Positions 6,498-53,505 of a stretch of DNA of 64,000 bases are shown here, piece after piece. The DNA is from Candidatus Moraniibacteriota bacterium (GTDB lineage: Bacteria > Patescibacteriota > Minisyncoccia > Moranbacterales > GWC2-37-73): the NCBI GenBank assembly GCA_035390125.1, contig DAOOTD010000003.1, positions 20,122-84,121 of the forward strand, in the 5' to 3' direction. Position 1 is the first letter of the stretch, and each line of letters starts with the position of its first letter. A program made the position numbers and the translations under genes. The notes under the pieces were generated by a model. The model was not told where the DNA came from, did not search any database, and saw only the letters and a list, made by a program, of their open reading frames with translations.

Positions 6498-7604
6498 TTA
6501 CTGTAACTTTTTCATTAATTCCAGATAAAAATTTAGGTTATGCAATGAAGCTAATTTCAAAAAAAGAGGATCCTTTGATTTAATTAAGTGATTAAGGTAA
6601 GCTTTAGTATAATTTTGGCAAGCATAGCAATTGCAATTTTTATCAATAGGTGTAAAATCATTCCTGAATTTTTCATTTCTGATATTTATTGTTTTATAAA
6701 AATCCTTTTTTTGTATGTCTTCTTTTTTCCAAATAAATAACCTACCGTGCCTTCCTTCCCTTGTTGGAATAACACAGTCAAACATATCCCATCCCATATG
6801 CACACATTTAACAATATCTTCTGGAGTTCCTACACCTAAGGCAAATCGCAATGATTTTTCAGGAATAAGATCAGCAGTAAATTCCAAAACGTCTTTTAAA
6901 AATTTTCCTCCACTGTCAACGTGCCTAGCTCCAAATCCATAACCGTCAAATCCTATTTTTATAAGATTTTCTGTACAATATTTCCTTAAATCCTTATATT
7001 CCCCTCCTTGAATAACCCCAAAAAGAAGTGGTCGATTTTTTTGTTTTATTTTTCTTTTTTCAATCTGTTTTCCATATTCAACTTTACATCTTTTGGCCCA
7101 AGAAATTGTCCTTTCTACTGATTTTTTTATTTTTTCTTTGCTGTAATTATTTGGCGGTGGGTCATCCAAGCAAACCATCATATCTACCCCTAAATCAAAC
7201 TGTATTTGCATGGCTTTCTCTGGCGTTAATTCATGCCTTAATCCATCCAAGGGCGATTTAAAAATAACCTTTTTATCAGTAATTTTGCCCATTTTTGGAT
7301 TTTTATGAATAAGGGAAAAAACCTGGTAACCTCCACTATCTGATAGAAGTGGATTATTCCAATTCATGAATTTATGGATACCACCCGACTTAGTTATAGT
7401 TTTAATCCCAGGCTGAAGGTATAAATGATAGGTATTTACAACCATAGGACCCATGCCAATTTTTTTTAAATCATTCTCGGAAAGAGACCTAACAAAACCC
7501 CTGGTTGCGTCAGGCATAAAAAACGGGGTTTTAATAACTCCGTTTTTAGTATATAAAATACCCTTGCGATGCTTTTTTTGTTGCGATAATAATTTAATTC
7601 CCAT
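6498..7604 (-). CDS. tgt: Queuine tRNA-ribosyltransferase
   Basis: TPFFMPDATRGFVRSL...NTYHLYLQPG and the zinc-binding CNCYAC...H motif; 368 aa. Confidence 0.9.
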   Translation of the reverse strand: MGIKLLSQQKKHRKGILYTKNGVIKTPFFMPDATRGFVRSLSENDLKKIGMGPMVVNTYHLYLQPGIKTITKSGGIHKFMNWNNPLLSDSGGYQVFSLIHKNPKMGKITDKKVIFKSPLDGLRHELTPEKAMQIQFDLGVDMMVCLDDPPPNNYSKEKIKKSVERTISWAKRCKVEYGKQIEKRKIKQKNRPLLFGVIQGGEYKDLRKYCTENLIKIGFDGYGFGARHVDSGGKFLKDVLEFTADLIPEKSLRFALGVGTPEDIVKCVHMGWDMFDCVIPTREGRHGRLFIWKKEDIQKKDFYKTINIRNEKFRNDFTPIDKNCNCYACQNYTKAYLNHLIKSKDPLFLKLASLHNLNFYLELMKKLQ

Positions 7605-9636: not shown

Positions 9637-10356
9637 TTAATTGTTCCACCTCAAAAACTCATTAACTACCAAAAGAGTGCTGTCACAATCTTCTTTAGTA
9701 GCCTGTATTTTTGCCAAAGTATTCATTTTATTTTGTAAAAACAATCGTATCATTTTTATAGCATTGGCACGTACAATAATTGCCGCATCTTGGTTTTTTT
9801 CAGCACAAGAAAAACACAATGTTCCCCCATGTTTTGCATTAAATATGGGTGAACTCTCGGAAAGTTTTTTACTGCAAACAACACATGAATTTACTTCTAT
9901 GGTATACCCAAGTTCGGACAATAGTTTGACGATGAAGCCTAATTTTAGCAGAACATGCTTTTTCTTGTCTTTATTAACAGCACAAATATTAACAGTTTCT
10001 AAATAATTTTTAAGAAGTTCAAAAATAAAACGATCCGGATTTTCAAAATCAACCAATTTCTCAAATAAACCCAACGCAGAAAAAACTTCCAGAATTGCTT
10101 CACTTTCACTTTTTACGGCTGTGAAATTATTTTCAACAATAGATCCAGTAATTTTTCCAATTCCTTTGGTTTTAATGATAGTTATGTCTGCCAAAGTTAT
10201 ATTTTCAAGCATAGAAGCTAATTTGGCATTAGATTTTCTAACTCCTTTAGCCAGGGATTTTATTTTCCCACCTTCAAGAGTATAAATCGTATATGTACGA
10301 TCAGTTTCCCCTACATCACGTTTATTCAAAATAATTCCAGTATATTTATATTCCAT
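9637..10356 (-). CDS. recO: DNA repair protein RecO
   Basis: N-terminal OB-fold pattern (GIILNKRDVGETDRTYTIYTLEGGKIKSLAKGVRK) and a C-terminal Cys4 zinc motif (CVVCSKK...CFSC); 239 aa. Confidence 0.8.
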   Translation of the reverse strand: MEYKYTGIILNKRDVGETDRTYTIYTLEGGKIKSLAKGVRKSNAKLASMLENITLADITIIKTKGIGKITGSIVENNFTAVKSESEAILEVFSALGLFEKLVDFENPDRFIFELLKNYLETVNICAVNKDKKKHVLLKLGFIVKLLSELGYTIEVNSCVVCSKKLSESSPIFNAKHGGTLCFSCAEKNQDAAIIVRANAIKMIRLFLQNKMNTLAKIQATKEDCDSTLLVVNEFLRWNN

Positions 10357-27499: not shown

Positions 27500-27534
27500 A
27501 TTTTATATAAGCATTAAATACTCGCTAATTAAAA

Positions 27535-27565
27535 ATGATACCAGAAAAAACGATAATTGTAAACC
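27535..27565 (-). promoter_or_regulatory. Candidate sigma70-type promoter of uvrA copy 1, with a conserved spacer element shared with the uvrB promoter
   Basis: Gene-strand sequence GGTTTACAATTATCGTTTTTTCTGGTATCAT: -35 TTTACA, 17-nt spacer, -10 TATCAT; about 35 nt upstream of the ATG. It is 26/31 identical to the element upstream of uvrB. Confidence 0.5.
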
Positions 27566-28862: not shown

Positions 28863-28972
28863 TTTTCTAAAAATATATAAAATTCAAAATTGTAGTCCTT
28901 TAAAAGTTATGTAGCCAAATAATATTACAATTAAACATATAAAAATACAATGTAAAGGGGAGGAATGTGATT

Positions 28973-29383
28973 ATGTGTATGATGTATGCAGTAACAATGA
29001 AAAAGGAAATTGTATCGTCTAAACCATGTGTTAAAAATGGAAGCTCGAAAGTTATAAATTATCTGTTAGACAAATTTGGGGCGCAAAATCTATTTTTTTG
29101 CCGCCCAGGAGACAAATGCATGTTCGTTTGTCCAAGAGAAAATGTACCCTTTGAGGTGCATGAAACAATTGAGTTTTTTGAAAATTTCGGAGGATTCATG
29201 AAAGGAATTATTGATCCTGGAATTTACAGGATTAGCCTGCATGACCAAAGAGAAACTTCGCATTATCTGATTTTGGAAAAATACGAGAATCAGAAATGGA
29301 AAGAATTTGCCGGACTTTGCGGGGGATGGACTAATGGACTTATGATTGACTGGCGCGGCATTCGTCCGGTTCAAATTAATTAA
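28973..29383 (+). CDS. Hypothetical Cys-containing protein (136 aa), opposite strand to the surrounding NER genes
   Basis: GGAGG RBS 9 nt upstream of ATG 28973 (the track ORF begins at GTG 28967). Product MCMMYAVTMKKEIVSSKPCVKNGSSKV...FFCRPGDKCMFVCPRENVPFEVHE... shows no recognisable family. It is followed by its own hairpin terminator. Confidence 0.5.
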   Translation: MCMMYAVTMKKEIVSSKPCVKNGSSKVINYLLDKFGAQNLFFCRPGDKCMFVCPRENVPFEVHETIEFFENFGGFMKGIIDPGIYRISLHDQRETSHYLILEKYENQKWKEFAGLCGGWTNGLMIDWRGIRPVQIN

Positions 29384-34356: not shown

Positions 34357-34402
34357 ATATCATTTTATTATCCTTGCATACTATATATCTTGCTAAATAT
34401 GA

Positions 34403-34433
34403 ATAATATAAGAAAAAATGATTATTGTAAACC
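34403..34433 (-). promoter_or_regulatory. Candidate sigma70-type promoter of the uvrB-uvrA2 operon, carrying the same conserved element as the uvrA copy 1 promoter
   Basis: Gene-strand GGTTTACAATAATCATTTTTTCTTATATTAT: -35 TTTACA, 17-nt spacer, -10 TATTAT; about 45 nt upstream of the ATG. Confidence 0.5.
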
Positions 34434-34527
34434 TAATTATTTATTGATTGATATAAAATCAGGCACTGCTGATAAGCAGTGCCTGATTAAAGAATAAACA
34501 TTCTAAAAGGTTTTGGGAGATTTTATT

Positions 34528-43425: not shown

Positions 43426-43478
43426 CTTAAAAAAATTGCGTGAAAAAATATTCACTTTTTTGTTATTTTATGTATTGA

Positions 43479-43503
43479 TTTTATTATAAATAAGCCACTT
43501 TGT
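43479..43503. repeat. 25-bp direct repeat in the upstream region of the giant gene, copy 1 (TTTTATTATAAATAAGCCACTTTGT)
   Basis: 21/25 identical to copy 2, 70 bp away; both lie in the AT-rich putative promoter region. Confidence 0.6.
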
Positions 43504-43548
43504 CAAAAAAGCACTTATACACACAGCTAATGTGCAATATTACTTTTA

Positions 43549-43573
43549 TAATTTTATCATAAATAAGCCGAAT
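43549..43573. repeat. 25-bp direct repeat, copy 2 (TTTTATCATAAATAAGCCGAATTGT)
   Basis: See copy 1. On the gene strand each copy reads ...GGCTTATTTAT(A/G)ATAAAA, a possible duplicated -10-like element or regulator-binding site. Confidence 0.6.
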
Positions 43574-43633
43574 TGTAAAGAATTACTCCTTTAAAATTTC
43601 GGCATTTTACAATATTTTAAAAATTTAAAACAT

Positions 43634-47729: not shown

Positions 47730-47780
47730 ATTTTTATTTTTTAAAAATTCACATACTCAATTATAGTATATATTTGGCAT

Positions 47781-47809
47781 AAAACAAAAATCCCGAGCTT
47801 TCGGGATTT
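47781..47809 (-). terminator. Rho-independent terminator (follows the small CPC-motif ORF)
   Basis: AAATCCCGA-gctt-TCGGGATTT 9-bp stem, followed on the minus strand by TTTTGTTTTAT. Confidence 0.55.
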
Positions 47810-47834
47810 ATATTTGTATTTGTGTTGGGTTTTT

Positions 47835-47987
47835 TAGAATAATCCTAATTGTCCAAAAAATGTAAAGACCAAAAGTGGAACCATGGCTATAAGAACAGCC
47901 AAATTAAACTCTTCTGAGCTTTGTTCTTCTTTTTTTCTCCTTGCGCAAACAGGACATGGGCATGGACTTTTTGATTTTTTTTCCATA
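47835..47987 (-). CDS. Possible small (50-aa) protein with a CPCPVC motif and one TM helix
   Basis: The minus-strand ORF encodes MEKKSKSPCPCPVCARRKKEEQSSEEFNLAVLIAMVPLLVFTFFGQLGLF. It is followed by the 47781-47809 terminator and is below the ORF-track cut-off; coordinates are approximate to within 1 nt. Confidence 0.3.
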
Positions 47988-48061
47988 TTTTTTTGCCAAG
48001 CTATAGTTTTAACTTAAGCATCGGCTGAATTTAAGATTAATTAATAAACAAAATATTTTTA

Positions 48062-48090
48062 AGACAAAAACGGGCATTAGCACCCGTTTT
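48062..48090 (-). terminator. Rho-independent terminator of recA
   Basis: AAACGGG-cattagca-CCCGTTT hairpin, followed on the minus strand by TTTTTGTCTT. Confidence 0.55.
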
Positions 48091-48182
48091 TTACCTTTAT
48101 GTTTCAATTATACTCCATTTTTCATCCTTTGTCAATGTCTTGATTAATTATAACATGGAATAATTTATAAAATACGGGTCGA

Positions 48183-52798: not shown

Positions 52799-53467
52799 CT
52801 ATAGACTAACAAATTTTACAGGTAAAATCTTATGAAAAATTCCAGCTATAAAAATTACATCCGCTTGTGAAAGATAAATTGGGTGATGGGCGTCATTAGT
52901 GGAGTTAGGAAACAAGCCAATCACACCTTTGCCCATATTTTTATAACGTTTGATAGTGGCCATACCATTGATTACCGCCACTACTATTTTATCTTCAAAC
53001 TCATTTTGCGCTTCAGTTTTTTCAAAAATCACATAATCTCCATCACTGATTCCGTCTTTATTCATTGAATCTCCCAGAGCTTTGACAGCGAATAATTTTT
53101 CAGGTTGTTTTTTGTGAAAAAGATTTTTAGAAATTTGTAAAAAATCATCTGCCACACCGTCATCGGCATAGGCCAGTGCTTCCCCGCAAGATGCTAGCCC
53201 ATAAAGAGGAATAGAAAAAATATTCTGCGCATCTCCATAATTCTCATTTTCTACCAGATAAATTTTTTTATTTTCATCACGAGTAATTAATTCTTTTTTC
53301 TCCAAAGATTCGATAACTTGCATGACAGATTTCATGCTTTCATTCATACCTTTAGAAAGCAGATGTTTATGCAGGCGATAGCTGGTTGGTTTTTCTCCAT
53401 TTTGCATTGTAAGTTCACGGATATATTCAAGGATATTTTTTTGTTTAGCTGTGAGTTTTTGTTCCAT
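52799..53467 (-). CDS. lexA: LexA-like SOS repressor (wHTH + S24 peptidase)
   Basis: MEQKLTAKQKNILEYIRELT aligns with the E. coli LexA N-terminus (MKALTARQQEVFDLI). It has a candidate Ala-Gly-type cleavage region ASCGEA and the Ser/Lys dyad KALGDSM ... TIKRY. The track ORF extends to GTG 53518, which has an AGGAGG 7 nt upstream, so the start is ambiguous. Confidence 0.8.
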   Translation of the reverse strand: MEQKLTAKQKNILEYIRELTMQNGEKPTSYRLHKHLLSKGMNESMKSVMQVIESLEKKELITRDENKKIYLVENENYGDAQNIFSIPLYGLASCGEALAYADDGVADDFLQISKNLFHKKQPEKLFAVKALGDSMNKDGISDGDYVIFEKTEAQNEFEDKIVVAVINGMATIKRYKNMGKGVIGLFPNSTNDAHHPIYLSQADVIFIAGIFHKILPVKFVSL

Positions 53468-53488: not shown

Positions 53489-53505
53489 AGTGTTATTATA
53501 ACACT
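53489..53505. promoter_or_regulatory. Perfect 17-bp palindrome AGTGTTAT-T-ATAACACT overlapping the -10 box of the lexA promoter (candidate LexA operator / SOS box)
   Basis: Gene-strand: TTGCAG (53518-53523)-17 nt-TATAAT (53495-53500); the TATAAT sits at the centre of the palindrome. Confidence 0.45.

Follow-up and report, generated by a model that had tools for sequence, protein, structure and literature searches.

A sigma-70-type promoter module shared by the uvrA1 and uvrB-uvrA2 operons in a bacterium of the Moranbacteria group

The stretch of DNA analysed here, hereafter the window, comprises 64,000 nucleotides of contig DAOOTD010000003.1 (positions 20,122 to 84,121, forward strand) from Candidatus Moraniibacteriota bacterium, assembly GCA_035390125.1. 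It contains two nucleotide excision repair (NER) operons for damage recognition, uvrA1 and uvrB-uvrA2, and a similar element lies upstream of both. The account towards which we lean, with somewhat better than even confidence, is that this element is a LexA-independent promoter module of the sigma-70 type, ancestral to uvrA1 and also present at uvrB-uvrA2 in the window species and its nearest sampled relative, which provides matched and probably constitutive expression. According to this account, the module of about 45 bp, reaching from about -37 to +10, would be the ancestral uvrA1 promoter of the Moranbacteria group. It would then have been copied to, or recruited by, uvrB-uvrA2 in the sub-lineage of the window, and would stand there in place of a LexA-controlled promoter. 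The elements in contact with the polymerase would be a near-consensus TTTACA, a 17-bp spacer ending in T5-6-C-T(G), the hexamer TAYYAT and the block TTAGCRA, and the two damage-recognition operons would probably receive matched, largely constitutive expression. We infer that transcription starts at the module, that it can do without a dedicated factor and that uvrB obtained its copy from the uvrA1 promoter by copying or recruitment.

On the gene strand, the element of uvrA1 reads GGTTTACAATTATCGTTTTTTCTGGTATCAT (27565..27535) and that of uvrB reads GGTTTACAATAATCATTTTTTCTTATATTAT (34433..34403). The two 31-mers have five mismatches, corresponding to 26/31 identity. An independent repeat search of the window extends the ungapped match to 45 bp, with 36/45 positions (80%) identical (Table 1). 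The degenerate 23-mer GGTTTACAATWATCRTTTTTTCT has exactly two matches in the window, namely the two elements, even when up to three mismatches are allowed, and none in 100 dinucleotide-preserving shuffles. Global alignment of the two 45-nt elements gives a score of 27, compared with -2.7 ± 3.0 for 2000 shuffles (z about 10). No similarity is detected in the 60 nt upstream of the two elements (p=0.86, shuffle test), and the remaining parts of the 5' untranslated regions (UTRs) are marginally similar (p=0.03). The similar block spans about -37 to about +10 of the promoter and then ends. There is no sign of a dispersed repeat or mobile element, the window holding two copies only, with the block bounded to 45 bp and the flanks unrelated. 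In addition, neither a dyad nor a direct-repeat symmetry is evident in the consensus of the module.

Both elements have the anatomy of a promoter. A consensus scan ranks them with the best sigma-70-like sites that the minus strand of the window contains, each reaching 10/12 with a 17-bp spacer. The uvrA1 promoter is composed of TTTACA/17/TATCAT with a TG before the -10, and the uvrB promoter of TTTACA/17/TATTAT without this TG. Both sites are intergenic and oriented towards their genes, and the distance from the end of the -10 to the ATG is 35 nt at uvrA1 and 46 nt at uvrB. The gene upstream of uvrB, encoding a 658-aa protein, is followed by a terminator-like hairpin with a folding energy of -23.8 kcal/mol (z = -7.2; 0/200 shuffles fold equally well). 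Since this hairpin insulates uvrB, the gene needs its own promoter. Between the stop codon of uvrC and the uvrA1 promoter, folding reveals no terminator-like structure. Moreover, a cis-regulatory RNA is not indicated at either operon, as no Rfam match is found and shuffled sequences fold at least as well as the two 5' UTRs (z +0.2 and +1.7). These results agree with the preliminary description of this DNA, which had reported the 26/31 identity and considered it to be beyond chance. Direct readout of both sites reproduces its coordinates and sequences, the shuffles and the 45-bp alignment confirm that the likeness exceeds chance, and its assignment of both elements as promoters is supported by the sigma-70-like hexamers, the 17-bp spacer, the position and the conservation.

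The conservation is most extensive at uvrA1. Ten relatives were obtained through their UvrB and UvrA1 homologues, with UvrA1 identities of 67-88% (the loci named L007, L008, L009 and L133-L138), and the uvrA1 promoter module is present in all eleven genomes sampled, the window and these ten relatives. The gene upstream of uvrA1 varies, being uvrC in the window, L133 and L135, and elsewhere the gene of a LysM protein, an HMA ATPase or a hypothetical protein. On the downstream side, the genes for a 152-aa membrane protein and a TP_methylase are kept. The 80% consensus of the uvrA1 promoters is gGggTTTACAa.T...g.TTTTTCTGaTACCATTt.TaatTAGCaa.Tac. Within it, the -35 TTTACA is kept across the orthologues (TTTACT in L137), often with a G-run just before it, and the 3' end of the spacer is kept as TTTTTCTG, the TG of which forms an extended -10. 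The -10 itself is kept as TAYCAT, and the block TTAGCRA is kept seven bases past it. Exceptions are found at the spacer end in L135, which is without the T-tract, and in L138, which has TTTTGCTG, and at the start site in L137, which has TAGAC shifted by three bases; both L135 and L137 retain the -35 and the -10. Upstream of about -40, no conservation is found among the uvrA1 orthologues.

The conserved positions comprise the -35, the -10 with the T-tract and TG preceding it, and the region of the start site; all are located within the footprint of RNA polymerase, and the similar block of the two window copies does not extend beyond this footprint. Such positions are contacts of sigma regions 4, 3 and 2 and of the beta-prime zipper. 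The 5' half of the spacer that is common to the two window copies (AATWATCR; ATWATC) is not conserved in any of the ten uvrA1 orthologues. The preliminary description had placed the operator of a common regulator within the spacer, and the variation of this half does not bear out that proposal. A hairpin, CCCCGTAC(n)GTACGGGG, abuts the uvrA1 -35 in L134 (~9800-9835) and L135 (~9900-9935). Its 3' arm is the conserved G-run, its T-run is the TTT of TTTACA, and promoter and hairpin may thus overlap, the latter acting as a terminator. At uvrA1 of the window the G-run is present, and no hairpin of the L134/L135 type is found there.

The situation at uvrB is different from that at uvrA1. The module is found at uvrB only in the window and in its nearest sampled relative, L133 (91% identity in UvrB, 88% in UvrA1). 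The uvrB promoter of L133 is TTTACAAAGATACATTTTTCTGATACTAT, its flanks are unrelated to those of the window, and the two promoters share the core alone, TTTACAA...ATTTTTCT.ATA.TAT. The presence of a common core between unrelated flanks argues that the core is under selection at uvrB too. In the other relatives compared, uvrB has a degenerate look-alike only (L006), a common different promoter, GACAAATTT...TAGCATA.AGTATC (L007 and L009), yet another promoter (L008) or a LexA box (L010). This comparison suggests a fast turnover of uvrB promoters in the Moranbacteria group and a far more recent origin of the module at uvrB than at uvrA1. The preliminary description had envisaged a conserved regulon and had named absence of the element from orthologous uvr promoters as evidence to the contrary; the idea is weakened on these terms, as most orthologous uvrB promoters lack the module and only that of L133 has it. 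At the 14 columns that vary among the orthologues, the agreement of the window uvrB promoter is 8/14 with window uvrA1, 8/14 with L133 uvrB and 2-7 with the other promoters. Gene conversion or a recent duplication, as the source of the shared 5' spacer, was considered with the same 14 columns, at which the agreement with uvrA1 and with L133 uvrB is equal.

Several relatives have TAGCAT as the -10 of their uvrB and uvrC promoters (TGTAGCAT / TATAGCAT), in some cases at a distance of just 7-8 nt from the ATG, with sites at L007 ~2190-2270, L009 ~9900-9990 and L134 ~7050-7100, and TAGCA recurs in the start-site block of uvrA1. The uvrC promoter was tried as a member of the same type as the uvr module and rejected: a TTTACA is located nearby (28960s), but the conserved promoter of uvrC is TTGnnn-17/18-TACAAT.

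The specificity of the module was assessed in 276 kb of Moranbacteria DNA, read on both strands and taken from 12 genomes (the window and eleven loci) with about 250 genes. This sample, made up of genome parts without tRNA or rRNA promoters of the lineage, includes the S6-SSB-S18, EF-P, S16, L10 and L7/L12 loci. With a weight matrix built from nine uvrA1 orthologues outside the window, the uvrA1 promoter of the window scores 47 bits when the full matrix is used and 31 bits with the core. Outside uvrA1, the highest core scores belong to the uvrB promoters of L133 (21.8 bits) and of the window (19.6 bits). In addition, the sample contains 27 intergenic sites of the form TT[TG]ACA-N17-TAnn[AT]T, in which TTTTCT at about -21..-16 occurs in 9/11 uvr sites and in 0/16 others. 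These 16 canonical promoters are mostly TTGACA promoters with unrelated spacers. The uvr promoters are set apart by the T-tract-CT block together with TTAGC at a fixed spacing, and no non-uvr site of the sample has a T-tract-CTG block or TTAGC at the right offset. Occurrence upstream of many unrelated genes would, according to the preliminary description, mark the element as a generic promoter; within this partial sample of Moranbacteria DNA it is not generic.

A scan of genome contigs for TTTACA-N10-TTTTCT-N2-TA-N2-AT-N7-TAGC yields three unrelated matches (Methanosarcina and two Clostridium), none of them from Patescibacteria. Metagenome contigs contain at least 119 matches to GGTTTACA-N8-TTTTTCT-N2-TA-N2-AT. 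Among the matches listed, about 85 represent one high-GC promoter from the human gut, and L030 and L071 harbor the sole true uvrA1 orthologue promoters. In other metagenomic taxa, GGTTTACA-N8-TTTTTCTGnTAnnAT precedes tRNA genes (L129, L069) and the gene of a basic S20-like small protein (L019), and this architecture is the look of a strong extended -10 sigma-70 promoter in many bacteria. The gut sequence, TGTCAAGGTTTACAAAGGCGGTTTTTTCTGCTACAAT, has about 60% GC and two or three downstream variants, is found at about 85 loci within L015-L132 and abounds in assemblies of gut metagenomes; it probably acts as a strong promoter in a widespread gut bacterium or other gut organism, or in a mobile element, and is unrelated to the uvr finding. 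L111 was tried as a third uvrA promoter and rejected, because GGTTTACAGCTTCTCATTTTTCTTTTAATAT lies inside the coding sequence of a distant uvrA on the minus strand. At offset 4955, counted on the reverse complement from its 5' end, the pattern encodes ..GFTASHFSFNI.., a conserved UvrA motif, and its promoter-like appearance is taken as a coincidence of the pattern search.

The lexA promoter of the window contains a perfect palindrome that embeds its -10 (Table 1). The corresponding candidate LexA box of the lineage, AGTGWTATAATAWCACT, embeds a TATAAT -10 and has perfect copies at lexA, in the window and in L008 (347-363), and at recA and uvrB in L010 (4995-5011 and 9984-10000). At up to two mismatches, the twelve Moranbacteria sequences give further matches only as reverse-strand readings of the same four boxes. 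On these grounds AGTGWTATAATAWCACT is a sound candidate for the LexA box of the Moranbacteria lineage. Within the window it is found at lexA alone. The recA gene follows in a lexA-ftsK-HTH_25(RodZ-like)-recA string, which may be one SOS operon, and SOS control in the lineage appears confined to this string. In L010 the box ends at the ATG of uvrB, and the uvrB mRNA of this relative is probably leaderless. DNA-damage regulation in the Patescibacteria, with its SOS network, is reported to have been the subject of a single dedicated study, by Sanchez-Osuna, Barbe and Erill in 2017 (Environ Microbiol 19:3465), to which PMC8565304 and PMC7739468 refer.

No site within four mismatches of AGTGWTATAATAWCACT exists inside either uvr element, and neither the lexA promoter nor any other part of the lexA-ftsK-HTH_25-recA region carries the uvr module. 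These two absences together indicate that the module does not belong to the LexA sites, or at any rate not to those of the lexA-autoregulating type. The preliminary description had noted that the element differs from the palindrome at lexA, and had left a choice between two regulators and no LexA site at all. The difference is real, with AGTGWTATAATAWCACT in neither uvr element, and the distribution of the box favours the latter option over two regulators.

Compared with known systems, the module resembles extended -10 sigma-70 promoters in its TTTACA, its 17-bp spacer and its TGn followed by TAnnAT, and its composition places it in this class. It is unlike them in that TACCAT and TTAGCRA are kept unusually tightly, in the G-run before the -35 and in its restriction to uvr genes in the sampled DNA. 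The E. coli LexA box CTGT-N8-ACAG and the Gram-positive Cheo box are SOS boxes on uvrA and uvrB promoters. The module has in common with these that it is a shared cis element before NER genes, and the uvrB of L010 does have a LexA-type palindrome, whereas the module contains no palindrome and no AGTGWTATAATAWCACT and does not occur at lexA. The mycobacterial RecA-NDp motif, approximately tTGTCRgtg-N8-TAnnnT, defines the PafBC regulon. As a LexA-independent, promoter-embedded motif at DNA-repair genes, consisting of a -10 and an upstream block, it is the nearest functional analogy for a regulator of the uvr module. However, the sequences are unrelated, the uvr module has a normal -35, and it serves one or two operons, compared with over 100 genes for the mycobacterial motif. 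Among the proteins of the window, none with a WYL domain or a likeness to PafBC is seen. The RDRM of Deinococcus is a 17-bp palindrome of the DdrO-IrrE system and represents another cis motif that acts independently of LexA in front of repair genes, uvr included, unlike the uvr module in its dyad symmetry; DdrO and IrrE homologues were looked for within the window only. Comparison by eye with the consensus sequences of known operators gave no further candidate: CIRCE (TTAGCACTC-N9-GAGTGCTAA) fits at TTAGCA only and has no right arm here, the NrdR box has arms of opposite polarity (ACAC..GTGT versus AGTG..CACT), and neither RDRM nor RecA-NDp matches.

The promoter module is the simplest account of these data, because the conserved positions lie in the polymerase footprint, symmetry is lacking, the "regulon" consists of one operon in most genomes and LexA and the RodZ-like HTH_25 protein are the only transcription factors encoded in the window. 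Several points nevertheless weigh against it. The promoter of a giant gene encoding a 2211-aa protein (43551-43579) reaches 19.4 bits with the core matrix, near the score of uvrB, so that much of the core similarity is generic sigma-70 signal. About a quarter of any one genome is covered by the sample, and further carriers of the module may exist in Moranbacteria genomes. For the uvrB module, the 14-column comparison is compatible with copying by descent and with convergence alike, and both start sites and promoter strength are predicted from the sequence. The account does not cover the G-run before the -35, which some relatives have as the 3' arm of a hairpin. Lastly, the non-consensus -10 TACCAT and the block TTAGCRA are kept more tightly than a plain promoter seems to need, which could reflect a bound factor. 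In line with this last point, the module might instead be the operator of a LexA-independent, damage-responsive activator or repressor that binds TTTTTCTG/TACCAT/TTAGCRA and co-regulates uvrA1 and uvrB-uvrA2. Conservation beyond the needs of sigma-70 (TACCAT, TTAGCRA at a fixed N7 and the G-run), a T-tract-CT block that is kept at both uvrA1 and uvrB and that the remaining canonical promoters among the 27 lack, and the limitation of the module to NER genes in the 276 kb all point to such a factor. We regard it as possible and still unlikely, as the consensus has no dyad or direct-repeat symmetry, the regulon would consist of one operon in most genomes and two here, an expensive arrangement where the genome measures about 1 Mb and regulators are few, and the window encodes no transcription factor beyond LexA and the RodZ-like HTH_25 protein. 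Moreover, L135 has lost the T-tract and L137 has shifted TAGAC while keeping the -35 and the -10, and the same architecture occurs at tRNA promoters elsewhere. We found no link between the element and any regulator, whether the SOS-type one suggested in the preliminary description or another. The more specific proposal of an NER-specific, LexA-independent circuit, acting through a factor for TTTTTCTG-TACCAT-N7-TTAGCRA, which uvrB-uvrA2 joined by acquiring the module after leaving SOS control, would make the system a counterpart of PafBC/RecA-NDp in the Candidate Phyla Radiation (CPR); we hold this to be a little less likely still.

The module could also be the generic strong-promoter consensus of this genome, standing before many highly expressed genes such as those of tRNA, rRNA and ribosomal proteins. 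The GGTTTACA-N8-TTTTTCTGnTAnnAT promoters of tRNA and S20-like genes in other taxa and the abundant gut promoter are compatible with this possibility, the giant-gene promoter is identical to the uvrA1 core at 21/30 positions, and the window is without tRNA or rRNA genes, the promoters of which would bear on this possibility. It is nonetheless improbable, given that the 276 kb of Moranbacteria DNA contain no non-uvr T-tract-CTG block or TTAGC at the offset and that other canonical promoters use TTGACA and different spacers. Far less probable is a second type of LexA operator, bound by the LexA encoded at 52799-53467. In E. coli and B. subtilis, uvrA and uvrB belong to the classical SOS genes, and L010 carries the LexA-type palindrome on its uvrB promoter, but the palindrome shared by lexA, recA and uvrB has no counterpart in the uvr elements, the module lacks dyad symmetry and is missing at lexA, and a single lexA gene is seen in the window. 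A chance likeness of two AT-rich promoters can be almost discounted. AT-rich intergenic DNA and common hexamers do raise the identity, but 0/100 shuffles match at up to three mismatches, the 45-bp alignment stands at z about 10, and the uvrB copy fits the independent consensus of the uvrA1 orthologues, including TTAGCAA at the right offset.

Table 1 Positions of the promoter modules, the uvr genes and the candidate LexA box in the window
Feature	Position	Strand	Remarks
uvrA1 promoter module, 45 bp	27521..27565	-	Contains GG, -35 TTTACA (27563..27558) and 17-bp spacer
uvrA1 module, spacer end	27550..27545; 27544..27542	-	T6, then CTG (TG = extended -10)
uvrA1 module, -10 TATCAT	27540..27535	-	
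uvrA1 module, TTAGCGAG	27528..27521	-	Near expected start site
uvrB-uvrA2 promoter module	34389..34433	-	-35 TTTACA (34431..34426); T6 (34418..34413)
uvrB module, -10 TATTAT	34408..34403	-	No TG
uvrB module, TTAGCAAG	34396..34389	-	
Terminator-like hairpin of the upstream 658-aa gene	34457..34488	-	14-bp stem, then UUUUAU
uvrA1, 931 aa	24704..27499	-	Full-length UvrA; Pfam UvrA_inter, UvrA_DNA-bind, ABC_tran
uvrC, 420 aa	27600..28862	-	Directly upstream of the uvrA1 promoter; Pfam
uvrB, 652 aa	32398..34356	-	First gene of the uvrB-uvrA2 operon; Pfam
uvrA2, 964 aa	29475..32369	-	Start 28 nt past the uvrB stop; Pfam
Candidate LexA box AGTGTTATAATAACACT	53489..53505	-	Perfect palindrome embedding the lexA -10; upstream of lexA (52799-53467)

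The two UvrA proteins are 48% identical. Both are full length, and each contains the UvrB-interaction and DNA-binding domains. An identical UvrB protein is found on 11 contigs from several samples. The uvr genes have the layout uvrB-(x)-uvrA2-uvrC-(x)-uvrA1 in five relatives (L007, L008, L009, L133 and L134), and in L010/L135, which are parts of one contig from one relative, uvrB-uvrA2 is located about 120 kb from uvrC-uvrA1. Between uvrA2 and uvrC, a Cys-rich protein of about 135 aa without a Pfam match is encoded in antisense orientation (28967-29383, plus strand). The same protein is also found in L133 (8094-8498), L134 (6327-6734) and L009 (17014-17424), and it is suggestive that this protein constantly accompanies the uvr cluster.

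Other promoters of the window show conservation of their own. The giant gene, whose 2211-aa product is a surface protein, has tandem look-alike promoters, TTTACAATTCGGCTTATTTATGATAAAAT and TTGACAAAGTGGCTTATTTATAATAAAAT, at 43551-43579 and 43478-43506 (minus strand). They share the spacer GGCTTATTTATRATAAAAT and are, after the uvr pair, the second instance of near-duplicate promoters found there. Just downstream of recA, the promoter TTGACA-aaGGnnnAAAATGGAGTATAAT (48107-48135, minus strand) is kept in four genomes, its spacer included, the copies in relatives being located at L006 4691, L008 6146 and L136 5777. Next to it, at ~47760-48100, come first a hairpin, AAAACGGG...CCCGTTTTT, and after this a conserved ORF of about 45 codons with a CxxC and a hydrophobic tail, which falls below the 100-aa cut-off of the ORF list. 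This region has no Rfam match.

To our knowledge, almost nothing has been established experimentally about transcription in CPR bacteria. The uvrA1 promoter is well defined and deeply conserved, and could serve as a model CPR promoter in vitro. The NER genes of this genome are not under the LexA box of the lineage and a relative keeps one on uvrB, which indicates that the SOS membership of uvrB turns over fast. Moreover, the module would represent the reuse of one promoter in two operons with paralogous UvrA proteins among their products. Should a dedicated factor act on it, a second DNA-damage circuit would exist in a minimal genome; if none does, the uvr module is a clean but ordinary case of promoter conservation and recruitment.

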